64,000 bases of DNA from Phycisphaerae bacterium (GCA_963666835.2 CAXXGO010000003.1:416001-480000); one strand, 5' to 3'. Positions 40,477 through 60,817 are shown, counted from the first letter of the stretch. Translations and numbers: made by a program. Notes: generated by a model from the letters alone, not told the origin.

Positions 40477-40556
40477 GCTAACCGGCCGGCCGGATAATGG
40501 GGAAAGTCCACCGAATCACAGTAACACGAGGGCACGTACGAGAGGTGATGCCAGCC

Positions 40557-42968: not shown

Positions 42969-43392
42969 CTCGTCTCAGCAGACCCCGGCGAATTGCACTC
43001 GCCACGTCATATTGCCAGCAAGAATGGCCAATAGTGGCACCAAGTGCATCATTTCCAGCCACACAGTTGCAGAGGGATACGAAACTCGCTATATTACCGG
43101 GCGGTTAATCGCTCAGGTGACGGCGCGGGCACGGGCCCACCGAATCCGCGTGTAGGCTAGGCAGCCTACAAGGCGGAGGCGGAGGAGCCGAAGGGCGATC
43201 ATAAGAGAACGGGCACTTCGCCACGAGTGTAGGGGTAGGATCGGGACGAACACCGGGCGGCCAGTGCTATTATCGTGTCATGGCGGGACGCGGTTGAGGG
43301 GCGAGTGCGGTTGGCGCCGCGTGTGCTCCAGCAGGCTGCGGGTCGCAAACATTTTCGGGTTCTAATGTAGAATGTTAGGGAGGGTGTCGCTG

Positions 43393-45018
43393 ATGTTTCA
43401 ACGTCACGGATTCGTGGTGCGAGTAGCGTTTGTAGGTCTAATCGCAACCGCTATGGCGGTTGTGCTGAGTTCACCGGTTCTTGCGGAACCGGTGTCGCCT
43501 TGGGGAAGCGACTTGGCTTTGGACCCGGCACGCCCGCCGGGCGAACCGCCGGTGCTTCCCGGTGATATCGCCGGTCTTCAGGCGGGAGCCGATCAGATCG
43601 TCGACCAGCAGTGCCCGGACGGAGGATGGGGCTGGCCTCACGACACCTGCACCACCACCTACCACAACATCACGGGGCCGATCGCGCTGGGTCTGCTTGA
43701 CGCATACCCCCTTACCGGCGACGCCGCCCATTTGGCCTCTGCGGTAGCCGGAGGAGACTTCGATCTTCTGAGCGAATACCCCACCGGCAATCCGCGATTC
43801 GGTAGTTTCACCGCGTATTTCATGTGGAGGCTGTCGGAGGCCTCGGGCGATTCGACCTACAGCGATTTCGCGGCTACCGAGTTCTTTGACGCCCTCGACG
43901 CCGGAACGTATGGTCCGGACGGTGATTGGACCACGGCCGATTTCGTGACCGCAGTTCAGGCAGCCCGCGCGGGCGCCTGGATCAATCTGTTGCCGTGGGA
44001 ATTCAGCACATTAACGTTCACGGCCACCCAGATCGGCAATGCCGGACAAGACGCAGTGTTTCAGGATGCAATCCTGGACGGTCTTGACACGCTCGATAGC
44101 ACGGACCCCGGCAGCGTATACGCCGACCTGCTCGGCCTGGCCGGTGGTATCCGCGGGCTGGCTTTGATTGGAGTAACAACCTTCGACCCGATTAATGCCC
44201 CCAATTGCGCGGCGATTGACGGGATCGATAACCTCGGCGACCTCGCGGACGTGCTCGTCAGTTTTCAGAACGTCGACGGGTCATGGAACTGGCACTCCGC
44301 TGTGCCCGCACCGACGGAGGGTGACAAGGACACCCAGAACTCCGCCTATGCGGTCATGGCCCTGGCTGCGGCCGACCCGCTGCTGGCGGCTGACTACTCG
44401 GCGGCCATCGTAAACGGTCGCACCTGGCTGTGGAGCATGCAGCTCCCGTCGGGCGGTTTCCTCAGCTATCCGGGCGGCGACGAGAACACCGAGGTCGAAG
44501 GCGAGGCCTTGTCAGCACTGGCCGCGCCGATGGGCGCCTGCTGTGCCGTCGCCGGCTCCTGCTCGGTGATCGAAGAGGCCGAGTGTACCGTTGCGGGCGG
44601 AAGTTATCTGGGTGACGGCACCGCGTGCGAAGGCGACGCCGACAGTGACGGCGTAGACGGGGAATGCGGTGACGAATGCCCGGACGATCCGGGAAAGACC
44701 GAGCCGGGCATCTGCGGCTGCGGAACGCCCGACACAGACACCGACGATGATGGTGTCCCGGACTGCCAGGACGGCTGCCCGCTTGACGAGAACAAGATCG
44801 AGCCGGGAATCTGCGGATGTGGCGTGAGTGACTCCGCCGACGATGACGGCGACGGGGTACCCGACTGTATCGACCTTTGCCCGGGAGCGGATGACGCCCT
44901 TTTCGGTCCGGACTGCGTTTCGGCCATCCCGACCGTCTCGACGTGGGGGCTGGTCGTCCTGGCATTGATCGTCCTTACGGGAGCCAAGATCGCGTTCAGC
45001 CGGCGCCGCACGGCATAA
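43393..45018 (+). CDS. Secreted alpha/alpha-toroid (prenyltransferase/QW-repeat-like) protein with TSP3-like repeats and IPTL-CTERM sorting signal
   Basis: QCPDGGWGW, QNVDGSW, QLPSGGF; DxDxDGVPDCxDxCP repeats; C-terminal AIPTVSTWGLVVLAL...RRR. Confidence 0.8.
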   Translation: MFQRHGFVVRVAFVGLIATAMAVVLSSPVLAEPVSPWGSDLALDPARPPGEPPVLPGDIAGLQAGADQIVDQQCPDGGWGWPHDTCTTTYHNITGPIALGLLDAYPLTGDAAHLASAVAGGDFDLLSEYPTGNPRFGSFTAYFMWRLSEASGDSTYSDFAATEFFDALDAGTYGPDGDWTTADFVTAVQAARAGAWINLLPWEFSTLTFTATQIGNAGQDAVFQDAILDGLDTLDSTDPGSVYADLLGLAGGIRGLALIGVTTFDPINAPNCAAIDGIDNLGDLADVLVSFQNVDGSWNWHSAVPAPTEGDKDTQNSAYAVMALAAADPLLAADYSAAIVNGRTWLWSMQLPSGGFLSYPGGDENTEVEGEALSALAAPMGACCAVAGSCSVIEEAECTVAGGSYLGDGTACEGDADSDGVDGECGDECPDDPGKTEPGICGCGTPDTDTDDDGVPDCQDGCPLDENKIEPGICGCGVSDSADDDGDGVPDCIDLCPGADDALFGPDCVSAIPTVSTWGLVVLALIVLTGAKIAFSRRRTA

Positions 45019-45161
45019 CCGAGTTGTTTGAGCAAGGAACGCGGGTTAGCTCTTATCGTGCAGCCCGCATTCCAGCAGATTGCCCGGCGGAGGAGCTGGT
45101 GCCGCGAGACGTAGATTCGCAAGGCAATAGCGCTTGGCCGGGCCCACATACTGAAGAAAAC

Positions 45162-45206
45162 GCGAATGGCGAGTGAGCTGCCCAACAGGCCTCATTCGCC
45201 ATTCGC
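45162..45206. terminator. Bidirectional terminator / REP-like hairpin
   Basis: GCGAATGGCGAGTGAG...CTCATTCGCCATTCGC inverted repeat between convergent genes, with A-rich and T-rich flanks. Confidence 0.55.
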
Positions 45207-45289
45207 CTTTCTACGGTCCCGCCGCCGCGTCAGCCAACGCCTGCCGCAAAAGAAGCCGGCCGGGCAGTTCGTATGGTCGTACGGCACAC

Positions 45290-46417
45290 TCACCGTCGCC
45301 GGCTCCTCAGCAGAACGAGAAACACCGGAACGCCGATCAAGGCGGTAACCACGCCGATGGGCAGCGTCGCGCTGCCCAGGTGCCGCCCGGTTAACGAACC
45401 GGCAAGGCGCATCGTCAGTTGGGACGCCCAATCGCAGATAATCAGAAACGCCCCGCCCGCGATTGCCGACGCCGGAAGCAGGATCCGGCAATCCGGCCCT
45501 ACCAGCAGCGCTAGAGCATGTGGCACGACCAACCCGACGAAGCCGATCGGACCGCAATGGGCTACGACCGCCGCCGTCGCCAACGTCGCAACGAGCACAC
45601 AGACTCCCTGCAGCCGCGTGACATCGACCCCGCGCGCGGCCGCCAGCTCATCCCCAAGCCGGTACTGGTTTAGAGAACGGCTCGCCCCCACCAAGACTAT
45701 CCAGGCCGGCATAACAAACGGGAGAATCACTGCTCCGGAAACCCGCGTGATGGAATCGAGAGACCCCATCATCCATCGAACTGCGGTAAACGTAACCCGC
45801 TCGTCAGATACCGCCGTAACGAACATCATCATCGCCGAACAGAACAGACCGATCGTCACTCCGGCCAGCAGCAGCTCGTTCGAAGTAAGCCGGCGCGAGC
45901 CTCGGGCGATCAAAAACACCGCCCCCACTACGATGACCGCTCCGCCAAACGCGCAGAGCGCCGGCGAGGAGATTCCCAACACCGCAACCGTCCAACCAAG
46001 CCGGATGGCAATCAGAGCGCCGAGTGACCCGCCGCTGGCAATGCCGAGCGTATAGGGCGTCGCAAGGGAGTTCCGAAACAAAACCTGAAACGTCGCCCCG
46101 CAAAGAGCGAGCGTGATACCAACCTGCAAAGCCAGCAGACTCCGCGGGAACCGCTGATCGAAGATGTGCCGGGCTGTTGCTGCGAAACCGGCGGCTTCCT
46201 CCTCGGATACGGTGCCGTCCCCATCGATGTCGGCAAACGCCCGTCCCTGCAGCTCACTTGGCGCGATCTCCATCCCCATTCGCGCCCGCCAGACATCCGC
46301 CCAACCGAACGTGCCCGACTCCGTTCCGATCCCGGGGCTGATGATAAGCAAGGTCAGCACGCCGGCGGTGCCCGCGGCTAGTTGCAGCACATATTTTCTT
46401 CGCGTAAGGCCGGTCAT
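45290..46417 (-). CDS. Iron-siderophore/cobalamin ABC transporter permease (FecCD/BtuC family)
   Basis: RFPRSLLA, FQVLFRNSLATPYTLGIASG, WMMGSL, GPIGFVGLVVPH, PIGVVTALIGVP. Confidence 0.93.
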   Translation of the reverse strand: MTGLTRRKYVLQLAAGTAGVLTLLIISPGIGTESGTFGWADVWRARMGMEIAPSELQGRAFADIDGDGTVSEEEAAGFAATARHIFDQRFPRSLLALQVGITLALCGATFQVLFRNSLATPYTLGIASGGSLGALIAIRLGWTVAVLGISSPALCAFGGAVIVVGAVFLIARGSRRLTSNELLLAGVTIGLFCSAMMMFVTAVSDERVTFTAVRWMMGSLDSITRVSGAVILPFVMPAWIVLVGASRSLNQYRLGDELAAARGVDVTRLQGVCVLVATLATAAVVAHCGPIGFVGLVVPHALALLVGPDCRILLPASAIAGGAFLIICDWASQLTMRLAGSLTGRHLGSATLPIGVVTALIGVPVFLVLLRSRRR

Positions 46418-47208
46418 CCGTTCCCCGCCGCCTCCCCCGCCGGGACGATCCACCACCGTGGGGAATCCCCTGCCATCCTAATCGCCGAAAGGTCTACGCC
46501 GTATACCGGCTGGAGGATTTCCGGAGTCAGAACCTCGGCCGGCGGCCCGCTCGCTATCTGAACGCCATCGTTGAGCACCAGCACATCCGAGCAGAATTGT
46601 GCCGCCAGGTTGACATCGTGCGTCACGACCACCACCGCAAGCCCCTCCCGCACCGCACGATCCCGCAAGATACCAAAGATGTCCAATTGATGCCTAAGGT
46701 CCAGCGATGCGGTAGGCTCATCCAGCAGGAGAAGCTCAGGTTCCTGAGCCAGCGCCGCCGCCAGATGAACGCGCTGGGCCTCGCCGCCGGAAAGTGTCGC
46801 CATCCTTCGTTCCGCAAACGGCAGCGTGGCCGTCCGCTGCATAGCACCCTCCACAATCTCAAGGTCCTCGGCGTTCTCGAATAGGCCAAACGGCCGGTGC
46901 GGAAACCGCCCGAGCAGAACCACCTCTCGAACAGAGAGGTCGATATCGCCGGACACCTGCTGGGGCACGAGAGCGACCCTCCGAGCCCGTTCGCGCGCGG
47001 GGATATCCGCAACCGCAGCCCCGCCGAGGGTAATCACGCCTTGCGTCGGCTTAGTCAACCCGGCCATCAAGCGTAACAGAGTGCTCTTACCCGCGCCGTT
47101 AGGCCCGACGATGGCCCAGTGTTGACCGCCGCCGATCGACAGCGAGACCGGCCCCAGAAACTCCGGTCGGTTCGGAAAGCCGAATTGCACATCTTCGAGG
47201 ACGAGCAT
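46414..47208 (-). CDS. Iron-siderophore/cobalamin ABC transporter ATP-binding protein
   Basis: GPNGAGKST, LSGGEAQR, LLLDEPT, HDVNLA. Confidence 0.95.
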   Translation of the reverse strand: MLVLEDVQFGFPNRPEFLGPVSLSIGGGQHWAIVGPNGAGKSTLLRLMAGLTKPTQGVITLGGAAVADIPARERARRVALVPQQVSGDIDLSVREVVLLGRFPHRPFGLFENAEDLEIVEGAMQRTATLPFAERRMATLSGGEAQRVHLAAALAQEPELLLLDEPTASLDLRHQLDIFGILRDRAVREGLAVVVVTHDVNLAAQFCSDVLVLNDGVQIASGPPAEVLTPEILQPVYGVDLSAIRMAGDSPRWWIVPAGEAAGNG

Positions 47209-47218
47209 GGACTTGGCC

Positions 47219-48163
47219 TTAAGGCTCAATCTCGTCCTCCGAATGGAGCAGTCGGGAAAGTCTCTCGATGATCTCCACATAACGCGGAGAGGGGATCAGG
47301 CAATTGTCTTCCGTGAGGAAGTACACGCGGTCGTTGTCCAGGGCGGGCACCCCCTGGAGCTGCCTCCATTGCTCGAGCATCTCCTGACGAATTGCCGGAG
47401 TAAGCTCCACCTCGGGCATAAGCTCCACGATGACCTCCGGCCTGCGGGCCACGATCCCCTCCGCACTCACCTGGGGGTACGGCATGTCCACGTGGCCAAA
47501 GACGTTTCGCCCGCCCGCAATCTCCAACATCTCGTGCAGGAACGTCCCCTTGCCGGTGGTCAAGACGTTCGCCAGACGGCCCGGGCGCCGCGCCACGGTA
47601 AGAAGGACCCCCGGACGTTGCCGACCCGTGACCCGATCGCGAATGGCCTGCAGGCGGCGGCGCAGATCCATCCGCAGACTCCGAGCTTCGTCAGCGCAGC
47701 CGAGGTAGCGGCCTAATTCGGTTATTCCGGTCTCCACGTCAGCCAGGGTCTCCGTCCTATCGAAGTAGATCGGAATATCCAGCCTGTCACAGAGTGACTC
47801 CACTGAGTCACTCCGCCCGCGCAGCACCAGAAGATCAGGACGCAGGGCGACGATCCTCTCAAGATCAGGATCGAACAGCCCCCCCACGCGCGGCCGCTCG
47901 ATAAGCTCGGGCGGATACACGCAGAACTTGCTCACCCCCACTATCCGATCAGCAACCCCTAGCGCACAGAGAACCTCCGCCGAGTTCGGGGCAATTGTGA
48001 CAATCCGTTGCGGCCCGCGAGGTGCGGAAGTTGCCTCGACGGGTGCCTTGGAGGGATCCGGCGAATTCGCGCTTGCGGCAAGGCCCAACACCCCGGCCAG
48101 GCCGACCGCCAGCAACATCAGCCGGTAGAACCGCCGCCTTGTCAGATAGCTTTGCGCGAACAT
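47219..48163 (-). CDS. Periplasmic binding protein (BtuF/FepB family)
   Basis: RIVTIAPNSAEVLCALG, VGVSKFCVYP, DLERIVALRPDL, PSPR. Confidence 0.9.
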   Translation of the reverse strand: MFAQSYLTRRRFYRLMLLAVGLAGVLGLAASANSPDPSKAPVEATSAPRGPQRIVTIAPNSAEVLCALGVADRIVGVSKFCVYPPELIERPRVGGLFDPDLERIVALRPDLLVLRGRSDSVESLCDRLDIPIYFDRTETLADVETGITELGRYLGCADEARSLRMDLRRRLQAIRDRVTGRQRPGVLLTVARRPGRLANVLTTGKGTFLHEMLEIAGGRNVFGHVDMPYPQVSAEGIVARRPEVIVELMPEVELTPAIRQEMLEQWRQLQGVPALDNDRVYFLTEDNCLIPSPRYVEIIERLSRLLHSEDEIEP

Positions 48164-48248
48164 GCGACCATCGTAGGCCCGCAGCGCCGGCCTGCAAGAA
48201 AAATCCGCGCCCCGGATCGAACATCAGCCAAATCAAGCGAGAATCGAA

Positions 48249-50012
48249 TCAGACTTTGGGGACGAGACAGGCATCCTGCACACTGTGGCCACAGATGCTC
48301 GCTACGCTAACAGTGGCGCGAGGTCGCTCCGCCTTCCCGGGCGACCAACAGAACAACCGATCGCGAAGCTCATTCGTAGCGACGATCAGATCAGGGGCAA
48401 CCTCGACTCGACGCAAAGTCTGACCGCCCGCCTCATAACGACAGGCGAAGCTGTCGCCTATCACACAGGCATGGACGTGCAAAGACGTGTCCGTGAAGAC
48501 CAAACGCCGCACACCCTGCGTCGCCAGCAACCAAACCGACTCGGCCGCCCGTTGTGACCCGCGGTGCAAACGCTCCGGACTCGAGTCTTGCCCTGGTCTC
48601 CAGCGTAGGACATCCCCCGCGCTGTTGCCCGCAAACACGCCATCCGAAGTGGCACAGACCGCGGAAATCGCGCCCTCGCTGCCAGTGTAAACGCTCGCGG
48701 GACGATGCGACCGGTCGTCAGCCGGCCAGCGGATTACTCGATCGTCGATCGCACAATACAAATCGCCGGCTAGTAAGGTAATCCCCCGGACGGTCTGCGC
48801 ATCGCGGGTCATTGACTCAAAACACCGCCGGACGTTCTCTACGTCACCGATATCCCACTCACATATACCCAGCTCGGAGTGAGAGCCAAACACCCGCCCG
48901 CCAACTGCTACCACCGAGTTGAACCCGTATCGAACCACAGGGGCTTCCGCAACGGGCAGAACCAGGTCCGGTGCCGACGCTTCCAACGGCAGCCGGTAGA
49001 CGCCGGTGGCGGCGCCCAGCAACAACGCCTGTTCGCCGTTTTCCGCCTGCGCTAACTGCACCGACCGTACCGCCCCCACGGCCCCAGCAATCGGTATCGT
49101 CATTCGCGGAGCTTCCAAGCTATCCGCAGCGAAGAAGAGCAATTCGCCTCCTGCGCTCACGACGATCCACTGAGTGCGGTCCGTTGGCACGTCGGAGGCG
49201 AATAAAGCCTCATACAACTCGCCGCGCTGGTGTTCGGAGAACGTGCGGAGCAACTCCGGCATATCCGCATCCGGCGAGTCCGCGGACATTGCTTTTAGAC
49301 GCTCCAACATCGACGCCAGATGGTCGAGATGGTCGCCCTGAGCCCGTTCAAGGGCACGCTGGACCCCGCGGGCGGCCACGTGTTCGGCTTGGCTGCGCAC
49401 CGCCCGCTGCTGAGTATCACGAATCTGACGAAGCGTGTCCGACGAAACCAGCACGGTGGGCTTGCCCTGCAAAGTCAATCCGGCGGCGAAACACGCGCCA
49501 TCAAGAGCCGCAACGAGGGCATCGGCCACCCTCTCGCCGGCACTGCCCTCCACAAGTTCCGCGGCCTCGTGCTCGGCGGTTGACCGCAGTACGCTATCGC
49601 GAACTGCAGATGCGAGAGCCGTTAAAAGGGACTCGGTCCGCACAGTGCGTCTGCTGCCGAGGATCTTCTCGCTGAACGATCGCAATTCACCGACTTCCGG
49701 AACGGGCGCCACACTCAACCGAACATCCGCCCGACATCGATATCGATCACTCGTGAGGGCATCTTCCACCCTCAAGGCCACCTCGACCGGAGAGACCCGC
49801 ACAAAGAGCAGATCGTCCGCGTCACCCGCCTCGACCACCGCCCCGGGCGGGGCCACTACGTGGTCGCGAGTCGTTCGAGTTACAAGCGCCGCCCAACCGT
49901 GTGGCAGGTCCAATGACCGAGTCAGCAAGCCGAAAACATCCGCAGCCGGAGCAATAGCGGCGAGGTTGCCGTCGTCAGCAAAGAACTTTTTGAGATTGAA
50001 CTTCCCAGCCAT
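48249..50012 (-). CDS. SPFH/Band-7-like N-terminal domain, coiled coil and C-terminal beta-propeller (WD40-like) protein
   Basis: N-terminal beta-rich region then helices ending in CFAAGLTL (SPFH-like end); helical linker; repeated 4-strand blades with AGNSAGDVLRW-type motifs. Confidence 0.55.
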   Translation of the reverse strand: MAGKFNLKKFFADDGNLAAIAPAADVFGLLTRSLDLPHGWAALVTRTTRDHVVAPPGAVVEAGDADDLLFVRVSPVEVALRVEDALTSDRYRCRADVRLSVAPVPEVGELRSFSEKILGSRRTVRTESLLTALASAVRDSVLRSTAEHEAAELVEGSAGERVADALVAALDGACFAAGLTLQGKPTVLVSSDTLRQIRDTQQRAVRSQAEHVAARGVQRALERAQGDHLDHLASMLERLKAMSADSPDADMPELLRTFSEHQRGELYEALFASDVPTDRTQWIVVSAGGELLFFAADSLEAPRMTIPIAGAVGAVRSVQLAQAENGEQALLLGAATGVYRLPLEASAPDLVLPVAEAPVVRYGFNSVVAVGGRVFGSHSELGICEWDIGDVENVRRCFESMTRDAQTVRGITLLAGDLYCAIDDRVIRWPADDRSHRPASVYTGSEGAISAVCATSDGVFAGNSAGDVLRWRPGQDSSPERLHRGSQRAAESVWLLATQGVRRLVFTDTSLHVHACVIGDSFACRYEAGGQTLRRVEVAPDLIVATNELRDRLFCWSPGKAERPRATVSVASICGHSVQDACLVPKV

Positions 50013-50070
50013 GATTCCGTCACTCAATGATCGCTTCGCAGTCTCAGCAAGCGCTGTAGCCGCCGCACCC

Positions 50071-51189
50071 TCATTTCTCCCCCTGCGCAAACTTCTCGTA
50101 GCGGACCAGATCTGAAGGATGCACCGAAGGGGGATTCTCCTCGATCGCCGTCAGAACGTCCGCCACCGAGATCGGCCGCGGCTCCTGCCCCGCAATCGCC
50201 TCCATAAACGGGCGCTGGGCAGCCCGCTGGGCAATACTCTTGATGTCGGCCCCGCTGTATCCGGCAAGCCGGTCGCATAGTGCGCCGAAATCCACATCGT
50301 CCGCCAGCGGCCGGTCTCCGAAGTGGATTTCCAGCAGTCTATACCGTGCCGGAGCGTCCGGCAGACCCACGTGGATCTTCGCATCGAGCCGACCGGGGCG
50401 GAGCATGGCCTCGTCCAACATCCAAGGCCGGTTTGTGGCTCCGACAAACAGCAGAGCTCGATCGCCTCTGCGGTCGAAACCCTCCAGCTCCTGCAGAATC
50501 TGCGGCACAACCCGTTGCATAACCGTCGAGCTGTCGCTCTTTCGCTTTGGTACCAGAGCCTCCGTCTCGTCGAGGAAGATCACCGACGTAGGTTCCGCCT
50601 TGGCTGCGTCAAAAAGCTTCTGAATGTTCTGCTCCGCCTCCCCGACCCACTTGCTGAGCATCTGCGCCGGGCTGACTACGAAGAACGTAGCGTCAATCTC
50701 GTGGGCAATGGCCTTGGCGATCATCGTTTTGCCCGTACCCGGCGGGCCGTACAGCAAGATACCCCCGCCGCGGCCAATCCCATACTTCTGAGCCAGCTCA
50801 GGATGCGCAAACGGGTAAATCATCTTTAGCCGGATCTCCTCCTTGACATCATCCAGCCCGGCAATGTCCTCGAAACCGATGGTCGGCTTGTCTTTAACGA
50901 TCCAGTCCGAGGCATCCGCCCCGGAGTCGCCCTCTTTCTCGCGTTGCCGCTGGCGGGCGGCTTTCGGTGACTTGTGCAAACGATCGCAGTCCTTGGCCAG
51001 GTCGATCAACTCCGCGGCCAGCTCCTCGTGCTGACGCTGGGCCTCGGGCGATTGGGTCGCCGCGGCCAGCTCGATCATGCACTCGGCCGCATCGACCAGA
51101 TACGCCTTGGCCGCCAAGTAGTCGCCCTTCTGATAAGCGGCCACCCCTTTGCTCTTGAGTCGATCAAATGTGGCAAACGAAACTGCCAT
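50071..51189 (-). CDS. Vps4/CdvC-like AAA ATPase with N-terminal MIT-like three-helix domain
   Basis: Single AAA domain: KPTIGFEDIAGL, GILLYGPPGTGKT, LSKWVGE, IFLDE, ATNRPWMLD; C-terminal PSV...DL.RYEKF helix. N-terminal A-YQKGDY-AA-Y...AAELIDLA helices are MIT-like. Confidence 0.8.
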   Translation of the reverse strand: MAVSFATFDRLKSKGVAAYQKGDYLAAKAYLVDAAECMIELAAATQSPEAQRQHEELAAELIDLAKDCDRLHKSPKAARQRQREKEGDSGADASDWIVKDKPTIGFEDIAGLDDVKEEIRLKMIYPFAHPELAQKYGIGRGGGILLYGPPGTGKTMIAKAIAHEIDATFFVVSPAQMLSKWVGEAEQNIQKLFDAAKAEPTSVIFLDETEALVPKRKSDSSTVMQRVVPQILQELEGFDRRGDRALLFVGATNRPWMLDEAMLRPGRLDAKIHVGLPDAPARYRLLEIHFGDRPLADDVDFGALCDRLAGYSGADIKSIAQRAAQRPFMEAIAGQEPRPISVADVLTAIEENPPSVHPSDLVRYEKFAQGEK

Positions 51190-51210
51190 GCGGTCCCTTT
51201 GGGCTTGTTC

Positions 51211-51585
51211 CTATTCGCGCCTCGTCACCGGGAGCCGGCGAACACGAATCGCTGTATCTCCGATCACGACAATCGCCCCGCGGACGAGGTCATCGTCAAG
51301 CTCATCCAGATTCGCGAGCAAAGCAGATGTATGCTCCTCTGGTCGACCGTTGTGCATTCTGAGGATGATGACCGACGGTTGGGCGTCAAACGAGCCTGCT
51401 AGCAACGTGCCGAAGTCCGTGTCCTGCGTAATGATGACACGTTCTTCGTCTGCCGCACGCCGGAGAATAGTCGCATCGTCAGCGGCCGCCAGTCCCAGAT
51501 CGCGAACGTGTACCGCATCGTTCCCCTCGGCTGCCAGATCGCGTGCAACTCTCCACGAAACGGCTTGGTCAACCAAGAACCTCAT
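51211..51585 (-). CDS. DUF5615 PIN-like toxin (VapC45-type)
   Basis: MRFLVDQ, HVRDLGL..ADD..I, RVIITQDTDFG. Confidence 0.9.
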   Translation of the reverse strand: MRFLVDQAVSWRVARDLAAEGNDAVHVRDLGLAAADDATILRRAADEERVIITQDTDFGTLLAGSFDAQPSVIILRMHNGRPEEHTSALLANLDELDDDLVRGAIVVIGDTAIRVRRLPVTRRE

Positions 51586-51586
51586 C

Positions 51587-51829
51587 TCAGGATCCAGTCT
51601 CTTTCAGTGGGACAATCCGGTCTTCGGTCAGTGTTGCGGCATAGCGCAGCGCCTCGACAATATCTTCTTCCTCGAGATCGGGGTATGCCTCCAGGATCTC
51701 ACCGTGAAGCATACCACTGGCCAAGCAACGTACGACGGTGGCGACGGGGATCCGCAAACCGCGAATGCACGCCTGCCCACCCATCTGTTTGGGATCAAAA
51801 GTCAACCGTCCCCATTCCATTGTTCTCAT
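51587..51829 (-). CDS. DUF433 antitoxin (VapB45-type)
   Basis: DPKQMGGQACIRGLRIPV, EILEAYPDLEEEDI.EAL.YAA. Confidence 0.92.
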   Translation of the reverse strand: MRTMEWGRLTFDPKQMGGQACIRGLRIPVATVVRCLASGMLHGEILEAYPDLEEEDIVEALRYAATLTEDRIVPLKETGS

Positions 51830-52048
51830 CCTTCACGCAATCACCGTCTGTCACGCAGAAAGCCCCGGTTTCCGCGCCGTAGTGTCTACCCCAAGAACTC
51901 AAGCCCCATCGCAATTGGCAACTCGGCGGAAGCCCCCCCTTCTCAAAACGAAATTTCATTATCGTGCTCGTGCGGAACAAACACCAAACCCTATGATAAG
52001 AGCCCCCCTCATACCAGCAACGTATTCGTGCCACACGAATTCCCAGCA

Positions 52049-52774
52049 TCAAAGCTCCTCGAAGAAGCGATTCTGCCAGTCCGGAATGCCGTTCACTCCT
52101 GGGCACGCTCCGGTGTAAGGTTGTTCAAGAACTCGCGCCGGGATCCAAACATACTCGTGTTCTCTCAATGTCGCACGTACTGTTTGGCGGACTTCATCCT
52201 TGAGCCCGTCTTCATTGACAATCCCAGCCAGCCGACCGAAGTTGCTCGCACATATCCGTGCATAACCCCATTCCTCGTTATTGATAAGGCAAACAGCCGG
52301 CAACCGGACAGCGCCATGATAGCTCGCGTCCTGTATTTGCGGGCACATCTCCACCTTCGCTTGATCCGGAGAACAGTCAAAATCAGTAGTCAGGTTGAGA
52401 GAGAGCTTCGTGCAGAGATCATCCGCAAACCGCCTGAACTCATCGACCGCAACATCCCAGACAAAACCAAACGGGCATTCACTGCGCTTCGGGTCATCTG
52501 CCTCTGACAGAACCTCTAACCACACGACATCTGCCGGCCTCTTGAGACGCGGAGACTCCATTGAGTTCGGTGTCGTATCATTCCGCGCACTGTTGGCGTT
52601 CTCAATCCTATCCTGGCCGATAGCCAGCACCGCCTCGCTCAGCGACAAACCGAAAACACCGCGGATCACTCGGATGGAGGAAACCGCAGTAGCTCCATCT
52701 GACATCAGCGTATCGAACACATCCACCGGCGTTGCACCGCTTGTCTTTAACTCCACGTATTTCGTCGTGTCCAT
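52049..52774 (-). CDS. Hypothetical protein (appears lower in GC than its flanks)
   Basis: 241-aa ORF; N-terminal SIRVIRGVFGLSLSEA resembles a ribosomal L7/L12-like helical motif. Confidence 0.6.
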   Translation of the reverse strand: MDTTKYVELKTSGATPVDVFDTLMSDGATAVSSIRVIRGVFGLSLSEAVLAIGQDRIENANSARNDTTPNSMESPRLKRPADVVWLEVLSEADDPKRSECPFGFVWDVAVDEFRRFADDLCTKLSLNLTTDFDCSPDQAKVEMCPQIQDASYHGAVRLPAVCLINNEEWGYARICASNFGRLAGIVNEDGLKDEVRQTVRATLREHEYVWIPARVLEQPYTGACPGVNGIPDWQNRFFEEL

Positions 52775-52946
52775 TGTACGGCTCGCGACTCAGGCGGTAT
52801 TCCTTGGATCGGTGCGAACGCAAGTGACGAAGCTCTGCTCTTGCCACCCAGGCCACCTCGAACCACTTTGCCGCTCCTTGGCACAGGTAGAATAGGGGAA
52901 AGCACTCTCGACTGTCCCAATGCTCTTGCCCACGAGTGGATCCCCT

Positions 52947-53555
52947 CTACTTCTGCTTCTCCCCCTCGCCCTTGAGGGCGTTCAGTTCGGCACGCAGGCC
53001 GGCGAGTTTGTCTAGTTCCTTCTGATGCTCCGCTTCCGTCTCGGCGTCGATCAGGCGGTCGATCTCGTCGTCGGTGACGACCTCGCCCGCCTTGCTCATC
53101 TCAATGTCTTGGGCGGCGACGTCCTCCACCGTATCGAGGAACATATCCATCCGCTCTTCCATGGTCTGAGACTGCACCATGGCCTTCTCCCAATCGGCCT
53201 GGGTCTTGACCAGATCCGTCTCGCCGAAGAGCTTGCCGATCTCCCCGGCCATCATCCCCATCGCCTGGGCAAAATCGGCCGACGCCTCCGCCTGCCGCTT
53301 GACCAACAAAGCGTTCTTGACGGACAGAAGCTGTCTTTCGAGCATCCGGCGGATAGTGGCGGTCTTCTTGAGCGAGTTGCGAATGAAGACGTATTGCTGG
53401 GTGTCGCCGATCTTCTTGGCGTGCTGGGCGTTCTTGATGAACTCATCCTGGAACTTGCCCTGCTCGCGAATCGACTTCTCTATCCGGCGGATCCCCTGCC
53501 GGATCTTGATGTCTCGTTCGATCCGCCGCTCTTCCGGTGATTTGAAAAGTCCCAT
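52947..53555 (-). CDS. ESCRT-III (Snf7 superfamily, Vps2/Vps24/CHMP2-3-like) protein
   Basis: 202 aa, all helical. MGLFK N-terminus; basic hairpin KIRQGIRRIEKSIRE...AKKIGD; acidic DDEIDRLI helix; C-terminal LAGLRAELNALK (MIM1-like). By eye it matches the CHMP3 layout. Confidence 0.7.
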   Translation of the reverse strand: MGLFKSPEERRIERDIKIRQGIRRIEKSIREQGKFQDEFIKNAQHAKKIGDTQQYVFIRNSLKKTATIRRMLERQLLSVKNALLVKRQAEASADFAQAMGMMAGEIGKLFGETDLVKTQADWEKAMVQSQTMEERMDMFLDTVEDVAAQDIEMSKAGEVVTDDEIDRLIDAETEAEHQKELDKLAGLRAELNALKGEGEKQK

Positions 53556-53642
53556 GAGAATTAACTCTCAGATATCCAAACGCGTCCACCGGCCAACCGC
53601 CGCAACCGATTACAGCTTCCCCCGGCGCCCCTGAGCCCGCGG

Positions 53643-53858
53643 TCAATAATACTCGCGCTCCGGAATGATAAGCCAAAGCACGAGGTAGATGACGCACATA
53701 ATGAAACCGGGAAAACCAATTGGCAGTATCGATAACAGTGCATAAACCACCCGCACGGCAACCGGGTCAATACCCAGGTACTCGCCGAGTCCGCCGCACA
53801 CCCCGCCGACCCATCGGTTGGCCACGCTTCTTCGCAACTGCTTCGGATAACCATTCAC
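53643..53858 (-). CDS. pspC: PspC domain protein
   Basis: LRRS..NRWVGGVCGGLGEYLGIDP..VRV...YLVLWLIIPE. Confidence 0.92.
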   Translation of the reverse strand: MNGYPKQLRRSVANRWVGGVCGGLGEYLGIDPVAVRVVYALLSILPIGFPGFIMCVIYLVLWLIIPEREYY

Positions 53859-53906
53859 CGTCTTAATCTCATTCCATCCGCCACCGCGGTCCGCCCGCCG
53901 ACCCGG

Positions 53907-54512
53907 CTACTGTTCGGGAGCCGCTTGTCTTTCCCGCACGCTCCGATCGGCTTCGTCGAAGCCCTCGGTTGTGTCGGTGATAGCCCCGGCGTCCATCTTC
54001 TCCCACACGTTCATTACGGTCTGCCCCGCTTCTGTCAGACCGGCGGCACCTTCGTCCACCGTAGCCCCCAACGCGAGAATCTCGTCCAGCCTCTCCTGGT
54101 AGACCTCGGCCCTGATCCCGTCCGACTCGATTAGCTTGCCGAGCCGCAGCATGTCCGCTTCACTGATCAACCCCAGCTTCGACGATTGCCCGGCTCGTTC
54201 GGTGTTCTCGCGCAACATACGCAGGCGGGATACGGTCATCATCTCTTTGCTGCGGACGTTGAGCTGCCGCGAGAGCATCAACTGCTCACTCGTGCGCAGT
54301 TCAAACTCCTGGGCGTAAGCCCGCCGAAGCTCCGGAGTCTTTTCCTGGGCTCCGCGCTCGAAGATCCCCTGCTTCTCCTTGGCAAGCTTCGCGATCTTGT
54401 TGAGCAGGCGCGTACGGTCCTTCTCGAGCAGCAGTTCCTGCCGCCGCAACTCCGTCCGCGTCATCCGCGAGAGCGGTCTCTTTCGCTTGGTGAGCCATTC
54501 GAGAAAGGCCAT
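53907..54512 (-). CDS. ESCRT-III/Snf7-like coiled-coil protein
   Basis: 201 aa. Amphipathic MAFLEWLTKRK N-terminus, basic helical hairpin, acidic C-terminal half. Confidence 0.55.
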   Translation of the reverse strand: MAFLEWLTKRKRPLSRMTRTELRRQELLLEKDRTRLLNKIAKLAKEKQGIFERGAQEKTPELRRAYAQEFELRTSEQLMLSRQLNVRSKEMMTVSRLRMLRENTERAGQSSKLGLISEADMLRLGKLIESDGIRAEVYQERLDEILALGATVDEGAAGLTEAGQTVMNVWEKMDAGAITDTTEGFDEADRSVRERQAAPEQ

Positions 54513-54578
54513 AGTCAACACATCCCCCGCAAAGCGGAAAAACCCACTAGTGACATCGCATCGTCACAATACCGACTT

Positions 54579-56042
54579 TCAGATAGCCTCCGGATCGGCC
54601 GGTCGATCCTTCTGCTTCTCAGGCACGTCCGTAGTACCGGAGTCCGCCAGCGGCGGCATGGCCGAATCCGCCGCGGCGGTCGAAGCCGGCTCCTCCGCGG
54701 TCGGGGCTGCCTTGTCCGGCTCGACCGGGGCGGCGGCGGGCCCCTCGAACTCGCGCAGGATGGCCAGCTCATCTTCGCTCATTAGGGCTTGTTCCATGCC
54801 GGTTTCGAGCCCCCCGACCATCTCCGCGTCGGCCTGCAGCGTCTCGAGCATCTCCTCGGCCGCGACGGCGTGTTCGGTCAGCTCCGTTGTGTCGGGCAGC
54901 TTGGCCGCCTCGCCCTGCTGGATCAACGTCAAGTTGTGGATGTCCGTACTGATGATGTTGATCTGCTGATTCAGCATCGCCGCAGTCGTGTTCTGCCGAG
55001 AGATATCCTTGCGCATCTGGGCCAGTTGCGCCGCGATCCGCCGCCGCGGAACTTGCGACGTCGCAGCCTTGCCCTCTTCGAGGAGCGTAGCCTCCTTCTT
55101 CTCCAGCTTGCCGATGTCTTCGTAGATCCGATCGCGGCGTTGGGCCAGCGCCGCCCGCCGTTCCGCCAGCAAGTTGATCTTCTCCGCGTCGTCGCCTTCG
55201 CCGGAGAAGAGCTGTTTGATTCGATCGATGACGTTCATCGAGTGTCTCTCCTGACGGTGCACTGGTGCACCCCGGAACAACAGGAATTCGCCTTCCTTAC
55301 GGGTGAGGCGTAGCTCCGGCTCAGCGTCCGCCACTTGCTGGAATCCCGCGCGGACTACCTCCTCAGGAAGTCCCGTCTCTCTAGCTACCGACGATACCGA
55401 TAACCCGCCGGTGAGCAAGTCGGCGCTGCGGGCTTCGATCCCGTCACGAACCCGCTCCAGTTTCTGCTTCGCCCCTTCCGGATCGAATATTTTCAACAAC
55501 CGCGGATCCACATTTTCGCCGCCGCCGGTGGTCTTCCAGCCACCGCACCCGTCCGGCTCAATCAACACCACGGTTACATCCCCGGCAGAAAGTGAAGCCG
55601 CCCGAGCCTCTTGCGAAAAGCCCGTTGTGCTGCACACGCCGATGATGTGCGGCACCCGCTCGTCGGCTACCAACTTGCGAACGTGATCGCTCAGCTCCCC
55701 CAGACCGATCGGCGGCGGTTCGCTACTGCCCGGGTCGGCGAAGTGACTCAAGGGCGACAGAACCGAGGCAACCGCGACCCCTGTCCGTCGCTTCCAAAAT
55801 AGAAAACGACGTTCATAGCCATGTAGCGCGATCCGACGGTTGGCCGGAAGCGTTTTGAGCAGTTCACGGTCGTAATTGCGGTTCTTGGCCATCAAAGCCC
55901 GCAGCCGGTCACCCTCGTCATGCTGCGACCGCTGCCAGGATGATCCGCGTAAGTACTTTCGCTTCGCCGCTCCCAGATTCGCCTCGACCCCCGAGAGGAA
56001 CTCGGTCTCGTACTGAAGAGCTTTCGATGCGTCAATCGTCAT
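54579..56042 (-). CDS. Fusion protein: Mrr/REase-like fold, winged helix, C-terminal ESCRT-III (Snf7/Vps20-like) domain
   Basis: IIGVCSTTGFSQEAR...VVLIE (Mrr_cat-like); LSVSSVARETGLPEEVV...LRLTRKEGEFLLFR (wHTH); then MNVIDRIKQLFSG and a long helical hairpin with an acidic Pro-rich tail. Confidence 0.55.
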   Translation of the reverse strand: MTIDASKALQYETEFLSGVEANLGAAKRKYLRGSSWQRSQHDEGDRLRALMAKNRNYDRELLKTLPANRRIALHGYERRFLFWKRRTGVAVASVLSPLSHFADPGSSEPPPIGLGELSDHVRKLVADERVPHIIGVCSTTGFSQEARAASLSAGDVTVVLIEPDGCGGWKTTGGGENVDPRLLKIFDPEGAKQKLERVRDGIEARSADLLTGGLSVSSVARETGLPEEVVRAGFQQVADAEPELRLTRKEGEFLLFRGAPVHRQERHSMNVIDRIKQLFSGEGDDAEKINLLAERRAALAQRRDRIYEDIGKLEKKEATLLEEGKAATSQVPRRRIAAQLAQMRKDISRQNTTAAMLNQQINIISTDIHNLTLIQQGEAAKLPDTTELTEHAVAAEEMLETLQADAEMVGGLETGMEQALMSEDELAILREFEGPAAAPVEPDKAAPTAEEPASTAAADSAMPPLADSGTTDVPEKQKDRPADPEAI

Positions 56043-56048
56043 CTCGAT

Positions 56049-56318
56049 CTACTTCCGATCAGGGGGGCCATCAATCAACGGTGCTCCGCACTGGCTGCAG
56101 TATCGCCCTTCACGAACTTCGGTCTTGCCACATTGCTCCCTCGAACAGACTCGCACTCGGGGTCTTTGTCCTCGACCACCCCGCGGACCGCGAAGGACGG
56201 CGAAGAACCCCTTGCCGACCTCCCCGAAAGCCCGCGCAATGACATACAACAAGCCAAACAACAGGGCCGCGATCCCCAGTACGAGAATGAGAATGATAAC
56301 CAGAGCATCACCGGTCAT
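56049..56318 (-). CDS. Small single-TM protein with C-terminal zinc ribbon
   Basis: N-terminal TM; CSREQCG...YCSQCG. Confidence 0.75.
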   Translation of the reverse strand: MTGDALVIILILVLGIAALLFGLLYVIARAFGEVGKGFFAVLRGPRGGRGQRPRVRVCSREQCGKTEVREGRYCSQCGAPLIDGPPDRK

Positions 56319-56337: not shown

Positions 56338-57366
56338 TCACTTCAGAACACTCAGGTCGTTGCCGCAGAAGATGCAGAACCGATCACTCGCATGCACGAA
56401 GGCCTGGCAAGCGGCGCATCGCGGCACCGATGCCACCAGTTGCTGCCCGCATTGTATACAGAACTGATCGTCGCGGTGGACCGGGTTGTTGCACGCCGGG
56501 CAAACCGGATCCCCCCCCGGCGGCACCCAACACCGCGAGGCCGCCCGCTCCGTCTCCGCCGGCGCCCCCGCCACAGCGTCCAGCATCTGCCGCGCGGAGG
56601 AGAATCGTCTTTCGTATCCCGTGTACGACCGCTGGAATACCTGATCCAAATGGGCGGGAACCCCGGACCGCAACGAACTCGGCAAATCACCGCCCTGAGG
56701 CTTCTTGCCGGTCAGCATCTCGAACAGGACTACTCCGCATGAAAACAGGTCACTGCGTGCATCCAGCTCTGCACCTTCCCGTTGTTCCGGAGACATATAA
56801 GCCAGAGTACCCGCAATGCTCCGCCCCTCTTCGGTCTGCATGCTCCCGCTCTGCATTATCGATTGCGCGGTGACACCGCCCACGCGCCCGAGACCGAAAT
56901 CCGTAATCTTGACAGATTGCTCACTGATGGAGGCAAGCTCCTCGAGCGGATGACTCAACAGCACGTTCGCCGGCTTGATGTCTCGATGGACAAGATTGTT
57001 CTCATGCGCCGCCGCCAGCGCTTGAAGGATTCCCCGAAGGACCGCCACGGCCGCACCGACGGGAAACTCCCCCTGATACCGATCAACCGCCTCCCGCAGA
57101 GACGGGCCGTCCACGTACTCCATAACCAGATACGGCGGGTCGGCATAGGGATCGAGATCAATGGCCCGGACGATGTTGGGATGGCGTAACCCGTGCACCG
57201 CAGTACCCTCGCGCTGCAGGTTCCGAACAAACTGCGGGTCGGTCGGGATCTTGATGGCCACCGCCTCACCGAACACGTGATGGCGCGCCCGCCAGACCTC
57301 GCCGAAGCTGCCCGCCCCGACGCGCTGCTCAAGCAAATAGTTGCTTATCCGGTCTCCCTCTTTCAC
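56338..57366 (-). CDS. Ser/Thr protein kinase with C-terminal double zinc ribbon
   Basis: GTG 57366 after GGAGGG. GAGSFGEV, VAIK, HRDIKPAN, DFGLG, YMSPEQ; CPAC..FCIQCG and CAAC..FCIFCG. Confidence 0.92.
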   Translation of the reverse strand: MKEGDRISNYLLEQRVGAGSFGEVWRARHHVFGEAVAIKIPTDPQFVRNLQREGTAVHGLRHPNIVRAIDLDPYADPPYLVMEYVDGPSLREAVDRYQGEFPVGAAVAVLRGILQALAAAHENNLVHRDIKPANVLLSHPLEELASISEQSVKITDFGLGRVGGVTAQSIMQSGSMQTEEGRSIAGTLAYMSPEQREGAELDARSDLFSCGVVLFEMLTGKKPQGGDLPSSLRSGVPAHLDQVFQRSYTGYERRFSSARQMLDAVAGAPAETERAASRCWVPPGGDPVCPACNNPVHRDDQFCIQCGQQLVASVPRCAACQAFVHASDRFCIFCGNDLSVLK

Positions 57367-57407
57367 AAAGACGATCCCTCCACCGCCATCCACAATCACA
57401 AGGCGAA

Positions 57408-57812
57408 TCAGACCTCCTCCAGCCGCTCGGCTTGGAATTCGCACACCTTGAAATTGTAGACTCCGGCCGCAAGAAAACCAAGTACCAGGACCACCCACGT
57501 CAGGGCGGCATGCCCAGTCACCCTCCCGATCATCCAGAAAGCCACCAGAACGTCGGCCAGCAGATACCCGATCAGCATGACTGCGGCGGCCACGTTGGAG
57601 TCCTTCGAGACCACCCATGACGTCACGAAAAACGTGGCCCACGGCAGAACCAGCACGAACCCCAGCCACGCAACAACATACTTGACCGTTGACCAGATCG
57701 TCTCCAACTGCTCGGGATGATTCCAGAACCAGATTACGGCTCCCGCCCCCGAGACGACCAGAACGGCGGTCACTACCTTGCTACCTACGTATTGTCCAAT
57801 GGCGGCCAGCAT
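57408..57812 (-). CDS. 4-TM membrane protein
   Basis: GAGGAG SD; four hydrophobic segments; first gene of the cluster. Confidence 0.75.
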   Translation of the reverse strand: MLAAIGQYVGSKVVTAVLVVSGAGAVIWFWNHPEQLETIWSTVKYVVAWLGFVLVLPWATFFVTSWVVSKDSNVAAAVMLIGYLLADVLVAFWMIGRVTGHAALTWVVLVLGFLAAGVYNFKVCEFQAERLEEV

Positions 57813-57982
57813 CCGATTGGGCTCCTCATCTGGCAGCGTCCCCACCAAGCAGGGACCATCCCGGGCTCCCACGTATACTCTACCGCAGAATACCGGCGCC
57901 GGCGATTACAAAGTCCGCATCACTCTGTAGTGTTGATTCGAGGAAAAGCGATGATTATCCACAAAATCCGACATGGACGGGA

Positions 57983-60585: not shown

Positions 60586-60817
60586 CTCAAGTTCCTCATC
60601 CTGAGAACAAGCGACCATTTCGAGCCGCCAAATGTTGCGTCGCCAATCGACATGCGGCCCTTCCGCAACCCTGAGCGACCGGCCCATCCTTGAGCCACCG
60701 GACCATCCTCTTTAATCCTAGTTCGCTTAGGTGGCCCGTCAACCGCCGACCGCCTCGACAAGAACGTGCGCTGCGAAATCCTCAAATACCAACCGGCCCT
60801 GCAACAGCCTCACGTCT

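Follow-up and report, generated by a model that had tools for sequence, protein, structure and literature searches.

The window analysed here, 64,000 nt of a Phycisphaerae bacterium (GCA_963666835.2 CAXXGO010000003.1:416001-480000), carries at 50071..51189 a gene for a single AAA ATPase, named AAA1 below, in which motifs typical of Vps4 stand beside an arginine finger of the Cdc48 type. A first-pass annotation of the sequence had described it as an MIT-domain, single-ring ATPase of mixed Vps4 and Cdc48 signatures. The locus raises the question of what kind of ATPase AAA1 is, and what it might do in a bacterium.

The AAA module and its N-terminal domain

On the minus strand the region is a single clean ORF of 372 aa, and the plus strand there is full of stops. 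Its parts are as follows (all on the minus strand).

50071..51189, minus: AAA1 (P0001, 372 aa), putative MIT domain plus single classical AAA ATPase, probable sister lineage of Vps4 (ORF, Pfam, NCBIfam, model, tree)
50971..51177, minus: probable MIT-fold three-helix bundle, residues 5-73 (model, fold search, profile)
50365..50760, minus: AAA core, residues 144-275, Walker A/B intact (Pfam and motif positions)
50422-50427, minus: PW motif (motif position)
50389-50400, minus: RPGR finger (motif position)
50083..50184, minus: C-terminal helix matching Pfam Vps4_C, non-diagnostic (Pfam)

The motifs that had been picked out by eye are all where they were said to be: the pore loop SKWVGE at residues 179-184 (pore-loop Trp181), ATNRPW at 251-256 followed by MLD, RPGRLD at 264-269, and the C-terminal motif PSVHPSDLVRYEKF at 354-367. 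With Walker A (GPPGTGKT, 148-155) and Walker B (VIFLDE, 203-208), they make up one classical AAA module in which Walker A/B, sensor 1 and the aromatic pore loop are all intact.

Pfam models AAA, AAA_lid_3 and Vps4_C are matched by AAA1. The Vps4_C model (PF09336), which had been proposed as a check, passes its cut-off (28 bits versus 21.3), so the C-terminal helix described as Vps4-like is indeed there; it is not specific to Vps4, however, since the same cut-off is also passed by four of six archaeal Cdc48 D2 C-termini, and Vps4_C was dropped as an uninformative classifier. The top NCBIfam match is CdvC (NF041006, 227 bits over residues 14-368, cut-off 650), level with PAN (226.8 bits, cut-off 500), next to CDC48 (219.6 bits, cut-off 802.65) and ARC (164.9 bits, cut-off 504.75), and the PAN and ARC matches begin at residue 92-96. 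Asgard Vps4 proteins also score far below the CdvC cut-off (269-362 bits), and for this reason it was likewise discarded as a classifier. The PDB sequence matches are headed by Cdc48/p97, whose two domains add up in score.

The MIT-like character claimed for the N-terminus holds for its fold, in that three helices superpose on MIT domains, but not for the exact pattern given (A..A.Q.GDY.AA..Y..AA), as the protein reads G..A.Q.GDY.AA..Y...AA. In the AlphaFold2 model (18-row alignment, mean pLDDT 75), the helices span residues 5-20, 24-44 and 48-73, and a fold search superposes them on MIT domains over 70-77 residues with Z 11.4-12.3 and rmsd 1.4-2.5. Six of the nine fold-search rows over this region are titled MIT, Vps4, katanin or calpain-7; the superpositions include MITD1 (Z 12.3, rmsd 1.7, 73 aligned), VPS4A (Z 12.2, rmsd 1.4, 70 aligned) and an archaeal Vps4 MIT (Z 11.8, rmsd 2.3, 72 aligned). 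The remaining three rows (NASP, an SRP chain and chitin synthase) tie at Z 11.7.

Profile searches gave a more divided picture. The Pfam MIT model (PF04212), also suggested as a check, found no match in the isolated N-terminus at E<=10, and among the N-termini of 30 family members Pfam returned a weak TPR_2 match in nine and a weak MIT match in two. With a 30-row profile of the N-domain, consensus TPR proteins match helices 1-2 only, outscoring MITs there. Among natural proteins matched over all three helices, the best is a 74-aa domain of chitin synthase 1 (E 1.9e-4), which we take to be an MIT, and the next are VPS4B and calpain-7 at E 0.03-0.12. An MIT fold is the best reading of the AAA1 N-terminus, with the reservation that helical-bundle Z scores at this level are no proof.

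An operon with ESCRT-III-like genes

The first-pass annotation overlooked the surroundings of AAA1, which lies in a co-oriented cluster. Its order is membrane protein, kinase, zinc-ribbon TM protein, a 487-aa fusion, E3b, PspC and E3a, continued after E3a by a three-ORF insertion, AAA1 and an SPFH-propeller protein.

57408..57872, minus: conserved multi-pass membrane protein, first gene of the cluster (conservation across loci)
56338..57669, minus: Ser/Thr protein kinase with C-terminal double zinc ribbon (Pfam, NCBIfam)
56049..56318, minus: small membrane protein with zinc ribbon (Pfam; in 9/15 order-level loci)
54579..56042, minus: 487-aa fusion of globular domain, winged helix and E3c (model, profiles, archaeal-locus homologues)
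55263-55475, minus: winged helix of the fusion (model and fold search)
54582-55238, minus: E3c, third ESCRT-III-like domain, in the fusion (paralogy, archaeal-locus homologues)
53907..54521, minus: second ESCRT-III-like protein E3b, probable ATG start at 54512 (archaeal-Vps4-adjacent homologues, paralogy)
53643..53858, minus: PspC-domain membrane protein, 71 aa (Pfam PspC 77.8 bits, cut-off 25)
52947..53555, minus: ESCRT-III-like E3a (P0002, 202 aa), Snf7/CHMP-type (profiles, Pfam, ESM Atlas)
about 52962-53021, minus: MIM1-like last helix of E3a (sequence spacing)
52049-52774, minus: 241-aa ORF, in the insertion
51587-51829, minus: DUF433, in the insertion (Pfam)
51211-51585, minus: DUF5615, in the insertion (Pfam)
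48249..50012, minus: SPFH/Band-7-like domain, coiled coil and beta-propeller, 587 aa from the ATG at 50012

The locus and its gene order are genuine and not a product of assembly, as one contig from a second study covers 47500-55340 with 49 differences. A promoter/terminator scan gave counts at chance level (2 vs 2.2; 7 vs 8.0). The insertion at 51211..52774 (minus strand) is of lower GC, absent from the other loci (0/40), and no part of the ESCRT-like system. The true start of the kinase is probably about 100 codons further in, its orthologues being mostly 343-380 aa. In other planctomycete classes the parts of the fusion are separate genes. The model of its N-part (pLDDT 92) contains a globular domain and a winged helix at residues 190-260, and fold searches with the latter gave generic winged-helix matches (best Z 9.2). 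The matches listed were taken up by winged helices, with none to the globular domain among them; ESCRT-II winged-helix proteins were likewise not among the matches listed.

The Snf7/CHMP-type character of E3a comes from its family profile. This profile (30 rows, 24 planctomycete and 6 from other bacteria) matches yeast Snf7 (E 1.6e-4), CHMP3 (1.8e-4) and CHMP2A (0.006), and weakly CHMP1B and CdvB; PspA/Vipp1 is absent among its 18 matches down to E=10. Pfam Snf7 is matched by 14 of the 30 members at E<=0.1 (best 2.7e-6), the window's own E3a falling below the cut-off, and the ESM Atlas lists Snf7-bearing clusters for it at 0.97 and 0.94. Its named homologues are Planctomycetota/Phycisphaerae, and identity across the order is 67-90%. 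In both E3a and E3b the N-half is basic and the C-part acidic, and the C-terminus of E3a, LxxLxxELxxLK, has MIM1-like spacing as judged by what we take to be the MIM1 consensus.

For E3b and E3c, no significant ESCRT-III match was found in PDB. By hhalign they are related to one another (94%) and E3a weakly to E3b (60%), and E3c aligns with CdvB at E 0.26 over 6-171. Local hhalign/HMM comparisons of all three with CdvB, Asgard ESCRT-III and PspA gave weak results, in a series in which the positive controls failed too and unrelated neighbours contaminated the Asgard set; Snf7 and PspA were not separable there for E3b and E3c. Their assignment as ESCRT-III-like leans on paralogy and on homologues that flank euryarchaeal Vps4 (E down to 1e-11). 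Archaeal Vps4 loci, in a Methanomicrobiaceae genome and its relatives, carry homologues of several operon partners (winged-helix E 8e-15, E3b 1e-11, SPFH 1e-11), and the SPFH N-terminal profile matches a Pfam Band_7 protein from an archaeal Vps4 locus.

The ATPase and E3a travel together. Within the order, AAA1 is present in 37 of 41 Phycisphaerae genomes, that of the window included (25 of 27 high-quality ones), and E3a in 35; all four genomes without AAA1 are also without E3a, two of them being 93% and 97% complete. Among 250 other genomes of the phylum, at least 33 have a full-length AAA1 orthologue at E<1e-74 (phylum counts of AAA1 are lower bounds, with 7 candidates scored per genome) and 48 have E3a. 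Both occur in 32 of those 33, and many such loci are also in the E3a profile; the 14 same-class genomes of the phylum sample have no E3a. Around AAA1, 15 order-level loci contain E3a (12), E3b (12), E3c (11), the winged helix (11), SPFH-propeller (14) and PspC (6), and 25 loci of the phylum sample contain E3a (20), the winged helix (19) and SPFH (16), the E3b/E3c positions in the latter often being filled by more divergent proteins missed by the profiles, which made a call in 3/25. In 3 of the 15 order-level loci AAA1 is apart from the ESCRT-III genes, E3a then being elsewhere, with the rest of the cluster in two. AAA1 is carried by named Phycisphaerae loci. Named Bacillota and Mycoplasmatota have related ATPase and E3a pairs, and relatives of the ATPase were seen in Lentisphaerota, Actinomycetota and Pseudomonadota.

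In the window's genome (92% complete), neither PspA nor tubulin/FtsZ was found, and besides AAA1 the only AAA found is FtsH-like. PspA passes its cut-off in 2 of the 41 order genomes, and the tubulin/FtsZ family was found in 1. Outside the order PspA often coexists with E3a (8/8 in family f35), so that a strict exclusivity of the two was rejected at the phylum level.

Many planctomycete operons outside the order hold AAA1 together with a second ATPase, AAA2, upstream of E3a. AAA2 has a similar helical N-terminus, SKYFGE, ATNRPW and SRF. It was found in none of the 41 order genomes, where the best match is AAA1 or a longer AAA, the latter in one genome. The reverse is seen in family f66, in which all five genomes tested have AAA2 and an FtsH-sized AAA and no AAA1, with AAA2 near E3a in all nine loci fetched (an identification of this family as anammox was dropped, its GC being 61-64%); in one genome an AAA2-type copy occupies the AAA1 position. 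Lineages keep AAA1, AAA2 or both; that one or the other is retained next to the same ESCRT-III gene is the strongest indication that AAA1 may do the job of Vps4.

Charge patterns were also compared between the two partners. Over 25 loci, the net charge of MIT helix 3 is inversely related to that of the E3a tail (Spearman -0.75): this order and, as a separate case, family f35 combine an acidic helix 3 with a neutral or basic tail, and most other groups have the reverse. Independent contrasts gave r -0.52 (p 0.008), the best of 12 post-hoc pairs and a value that fails correction for 12 tests. An independent-pairs test had no power, and control segments of E3a and the AAA module showed no significant charge covariation. 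Helices 2-3 of MIT presumably form the MIM1 groove, and as a sign of MIT-E3a tail recognition the covariation is suggestive only. A complex prediction for MIT (1-78) and the E3a tail (160-202) scored 0.14 and 0.23, the mark being 0.32, and has no bearing either way.

Position among classical AAA domains

Reference domains were taken from named loci and from phylum searches around named archaea, and the labels Cdc48, PAN, MBA, DPANN-type and Halobacteriota are our own assignments from architecture, motifs and recall. The sampling left out labelled eukaryotic Vps4, katanin, spastin and ARC and, among archaea, labelled Thermoplasmatota, Thermococci, Methanococci and Methanobacteria. A representative search dominated by multi-AAA proteins contributed to a first set of 652 domains, with only two of its proteins present in the smaller trees; of the 652, 101 domains were used under LG+G4 and 59 under LG+C20, the last set omitting the long-branch L211 domains and three compositionally odd rows.

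The placement of AAA1 depends on the model. FastTree puts it on the Cdc48-D2 side (93). In the IQ-TREE LG+G4 tree the AAA1 clade (96/94) lies outside D1, D2 and PAN and joins two Vps4 groups and MBA in a polytomy; uniting AAA1 with Vps4 improves on the free tree by 1.0 lnL (p 0.52), and uniting it with D2 costs 23 lnL but is not rejected (p 0.21). Under LG+C20 PMSF, canonical Vps4 and AAA2 form one clade (100/97), in which AAA2 falls inside euryarchaeal Vps4 (100/98), and the AAA1 clade (92/86) is sister to all sampled canonical Vps4/CdvC plus AAA2 (97/89). Here the D1 (100/100) and D2 (100/98) clades both exclude AAA1, PAN is a separate clade, and a union of AAA1 with Cdc48 D2 is rejected (AU p=0.0195). 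By the best model, then, AAA1 would be a sister of Vps4 and not nested inside the canonical clade. This tree, with archaeal CdvC/Vps4 included, is the one that the first-pass annotation had called for, with the thought that the N-terminus might prove to be a TPR or unrelated fold and the AAA domain a member of the bacterial Cdc48-like or ARC families. MIT is the best reading of the N-terminus, and among the groups sampled the AAA domain nests in neither Cdc48 nor PAN. Of the suggested early-branching or acquired Vps4 lineage, the early branching agrees with the sister position; horizontal acquisition is supported for AAA2 in other planctomycetes rather than for AAA1.

The motifs fit this topology. 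PW after the sensor-1 Asn is present in 55/55 AAA1, almost every Vps4 (27/30 in Asgard) and 0/102 parsed Cdc48 domains (most TACK rows were collected with a pattern requiring PW). The RxGR finger is found in 55/55 AAA1 and also in Cdc48, with RPGR[FL]D in 4/4 PAN, and bears out the earlier view of a Cdc48/proteasome-like finger rather than a Vps4 one; [RS]RF is found in 105/105 parsed canonical Vps4 and 14/14 AAA2 and, among the groups compared, only there. Given its presence in PAN too, the RPGR[FL]D finger is probably ancestral. Since the motifs map simply onto the LG+C20 tree, the mixed signature of AAA1 is best read as derived Vps4 traits together with a retained ancestral finger, and not as a chimera.

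Where this lineage came from is a separate matter. We see an even chance that the entire operon, with AAA1, came from euryarchaea at an early point in Planctomycetota history, AAA1 being an archaeal Vps4 offshoot and not native bacterial. Such an import would agree with the nesting of AAA2 among euryarchaeal Vps4, with the archaeal homologues of the winged-helix, E3b/E3c and SPFH genes, and with four archaeal sequences in the AAA1 clade, one of which (L349) has the same winged-helix, E3a and AAA1 module. The sampled members of the clade are, however, mostly bacterial (Planctomycetota, Bacillota, Mycoplasmatota, Lentisphaerota, Actinomycetota and Pseudomonadota), and the archaeal ones fall in two separate places.

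Proposed function and comparison with known systems

Vps4 recycles the filaments of ESCRT-III, which cut membranes in archaea and eukaryotes. In Vps4 biology, ESCRT-III paralogues form polymers on membranes, the MIT domain binds a C-terminal MIM, and the hexamer extracts subunits. The same scheme is summarised in passages of PMC7619361 and PMC8281802. By analogy, AAA1 is likely to serve a bacterial ESCRT-like membrane-remodelling system as its ESCRT-IV-type ATPase, the operon with ESCRT-III-like genes being the main evidence for its function. Vps4 is defined in a passage of PMC10936438 by an MIT domain or ESCRT neighbours. AAA1 appears to have both, namely the MIT fold and E3a in 12/15 order-level and 20/25 other planctomycete loci, and it can be called a Vps4 member by this operational definition and a sister by tree and finger motif. 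The lack of a Pfam MIT match, the TPR scores on helices 1-2, the non-MIT bundles of equal Z, the RxGR finger, the model dependence of the tree, the lack of a significant PDB match for E3b and E3c, the 3/15 loci with AAA1 apart and the coexistence of PspA with E3a outside the order count against the ESCRT-IV reading.

In such a system, the three ESCRT-III-like proteins would polymerise together at the cytoplasmic membrane, on its inner face, recruited by PspC, the zinc-ribbon TM protein, the SPFH-propeller protein and the winged-helix domain, with the kinase as their regulator. AAA1 would dock via its MIT on the MIM1-like last helix of E3a, assemble as a single hexameric ring, thread subunits past the KWVG pore loop, and dismantle or remodel the polymer. 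The likeliest job, to which we would give about half of the total probability, is membrane repair or stress remodelling, replacing the PspA that is mostly absent in the order. It is favoured over an essential role in division because of PspC, SPFH, the near-absence of PspA and the joint loss of AAA1 and E3a in well-assembled genomes.

The same machine might instead bud vesicles or sort cargo at internal or outer membranes, a role put forward for the euryarchaeal 'Main' and Meth_adaptin systems, and we regard this as rather unlikely: the gene set does parallel the systems of PMC10936438, as far as they are described there, in its winged-helix protein, ESCRT-III paralogues, kinase, SPFH and beta-propeller, but no adaptin-like cargo adaptor was identified (without a dedicated search) and PspC, a stress-sensor domain, is embedded in the operon in part of the order. 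It is improbable that the locus encodes a Cdv-like division machinery in place of FtsZ. The rarity of tubulin/FtsZ in the order (1/41 genomes, against 37 with AAA1 and 35 with E3a) and the conservation of E3a would suit it, but the two genomes of 93% and 97% completeness have neither AAA1 nor E3a, E3a is missing from the 14 same-class genomes, and related modules occur in Bacillota, which divide with FtsZ.

A bolder idea, to which we attach little credence, is that the RPGR-type MIT-AAA and its Snf7-type partner are a natively bacterial sister of the whole Vps4/ESCRT-III machine, a Cdc48-to-Vps4 intermediate as old as the archaeal system, which in FtsZ-less Phycisphaerae would carry out ATP-driven membrane scission for division or internal compartments. 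Very improbable is a one-ring Cdc48 derivative with a TPR-like adaptor, acting as a general membrane-protein unfoldase on substrates other than its ESCRT-III neighbours, since the RPGR finger, the Cdc48/p97 matches in PDB, the FastTree grouping and its non-rejection under LG+G4, the TPR matches on helices 1-2 and the status of AAA1 as the sole non-FtsH classical AAA found in the genome are set against the rejection of the D2 union by the mixture model, the PW motif (55/55 AAA1, 0/102 Cdc48 domains), and the loss of AAA1 together with E3a and its reciprocal exchange with true Vps4.

Under the ESCRT-IV reading, the locus departs from earlier accounts. A Vps4-like ATPase appears absent in bacteria according to the relevant passage of PMC7619361, and Snf7-type proteins are placed in archaea and eukaryotes in that of PMC8281802. 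Excerpts of PMC11237479 (Ravi et al. 2024) mention occasional bacterial Snf7 homologues and PspA/Snf7-AAA operons and, in Text S2.2, bacterial 'VPS4-like' ATPases, Planctomycetes included, that have a TPR+6TM neighbour and a displaced snf7. The latter are probably the 450-500-aa planctomycete ATPases of the same broad clade, an identity that we infer; three ESCRT-III-like genes are kept here, whereas snf7 is displaced in the loci as described there. In the portions of the published literature covered, no description of this operon was found, and PMC7203096, which mentions ESCRT, may bear on priority.

The locus, which is conserved throughout an order and found in several further planctomycete families, contradicts the absence of a Vps4/ESCRT-III pairing in bacteria as stated in recent papers, Makarova et al. 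among them. The AAA1 lineage, a putative Vps4 sister sharing PW and MIT and keeping the older Cdc48/PAN-type RPGR finger, has the mix of characters expected of a Cdc48-to-Vps4 intermediate. With operons that hold both AAA1 and true Vps4, and with reciprocal loss, the specificity between ATPase and ESCRT-III can be tested directly on small soluble proteins. The system is also a tangible candidate for how membranes are remodelled in a phylum noted for its unusual membranes and for dividing without FtsZ.

Among known systems, Cdc48/VAT/p97 shares with AAA1 the RPGR[FL]D finger, SKWVGE as in archaeal D2, a similar C-terminal helix and the best PDB sequence scores; it has tandem D1-D2 behind a double-psi-barrel N-domain, whereas AAA1 has one AAA module, a probable MIT and PW, and lies outside the D1 and D2 clades. 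PAN and ARC carry an N-terminal coiled coil and OB fold that AAA1 is without, and its scores are below their cut-offs. The phage-shock (Psp) systems have in common with the locus PspC in the operon, an SPFH partner and an effector of the ESCRT-III superfamily, but here the effector E3a is of the Snf7/CHMP type, not PspA, and a dedicated MIT ATPase is present.

The euryarchaeal 'Main clade' ESCRT system (Makarova et al. 2024, PMC10936438), as far as described there, shares a winged-helix protein whose globular domain is unmatched, along with ESCRT-III paralogues, Vps4 and a kinase; arCOG08177 (Cas2-like plus TBP fold) is a component of that system. The N-part of our fusion fits the description of arCOG09748 in that paper, which suggests that the two may be equivalent. 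The order differs in that the Main-type Vps4 (AAA2) is lost and the sister-lineage AAA1 remains with its own E3a, and in that the winged-helix protein is fused to ESCRT-III and SPFH to the propeller. With archaeal Vps4/CdvC and ESCRT-III/CdvB (Sulfolobales MIT 2w2u), AAA1 would share an MIT, a single AAA and C-terminal helix, PW and ESCRT-III neighbours, while differing in its RPGR in place of (R/S)RF, its probable position as sister to the Vps4 clade, its bacterial host and the PspC in its operon.

The insertion and the genes flanking the cluster

In the window, the ATPase gene (AAA1, an MIT-domain protein with a single AAA module) is separated from the gene of its Snf7/CHMP-type ESCRT-III-like partner, E3a, by an insert that was found at none of the 40 other loci, and whose GC content (54–56% at 51500–52500, versus ~62%) is low. 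The DUF433/DUF5615 pair is a putative toxin-antitoxin system. In other genomes, the same spot between E3a and the ATPase carries insertions of other kinds. The neighbours at 40497–48163 are ordinary.

Window genes around the ATPase/ESCRT-III cluster
40497–42968, TPR protein whose low-complexity tail is long
43372–45018, IPTL-CTERM secreted protein
45290–48163, periplasmic-binding/ABC transporter set
51211–52774, minus strand, DUF433/DUF5615 pair and a 241-aa orphan ORF (the insert)
57983–59395, minus strand, HAMP-GGDEF diguanylate cyclase
59587–60687, minus strand, helical membrane-anchored protein of 366 aa, without family
61246–62148, minus strand, presumably a branched-chain aminotransferase

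Among the 41 order-level genomes, the sole tubulin/FtsZ-family gene (G008:C50:794–1273) lies close to a contig end.

Variant ATPases and canonical Vps4 elsewhere

Longer AAA1-clade proteins (660–700 aa) with a second AAA-like module were seen at L083:1015–3120 and L142:5644–7713 and in P0135 and P0139, and the two gut-bacterial loci of this set have the long form near E3a-type genes. A Rhodospirillaceae MAG encodes an ATPase of the true Vps4 clade (AAA2 type, L066:5194–6435), with no ESCRT-III detected within ~6 kb. Directly upstream of AAA2 in an operon of the planctomycete family f66, a 363-aa ORF (L365:6259–7350) faintly matches the AAA1 profile and is possibly a decayed or repurposed ATPase.

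Vps4 ATPases of canonical type (L073, L132, L316–L325) occur in an archaeal phylum with small genomes (10 of 61) and in one Micrarchaeota genome; at the four loci examined, no ESCRT-III neighbour was detected. PMC7619361 describes DPANN as lacking ESCRT-III.

Archaeal members of the AAA1 clade

A planctomycete-type module, comprising a winged-helix protein, an E3a-type ESCRT-III and AAA1, is present in an archaeon (G333, of the same phylum as G291; L349:6845–10649) on a contig of 422 kb, and its ATPase is the sister of planctomycete AAA1 in the tree (support 98/96). Three further archaeal genomes (G355, G379 and G301; L346–L348) encode RxGR-type single-AAA ATPases of this clade, which neighbour SPFH-zinc-ribbon genes and, at one locus, also a PEGA protein; a profile search of these loci detected no ESCRT-III neighbours. 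These three ATPases may be related to the Meth_adaptin type of Makarova.
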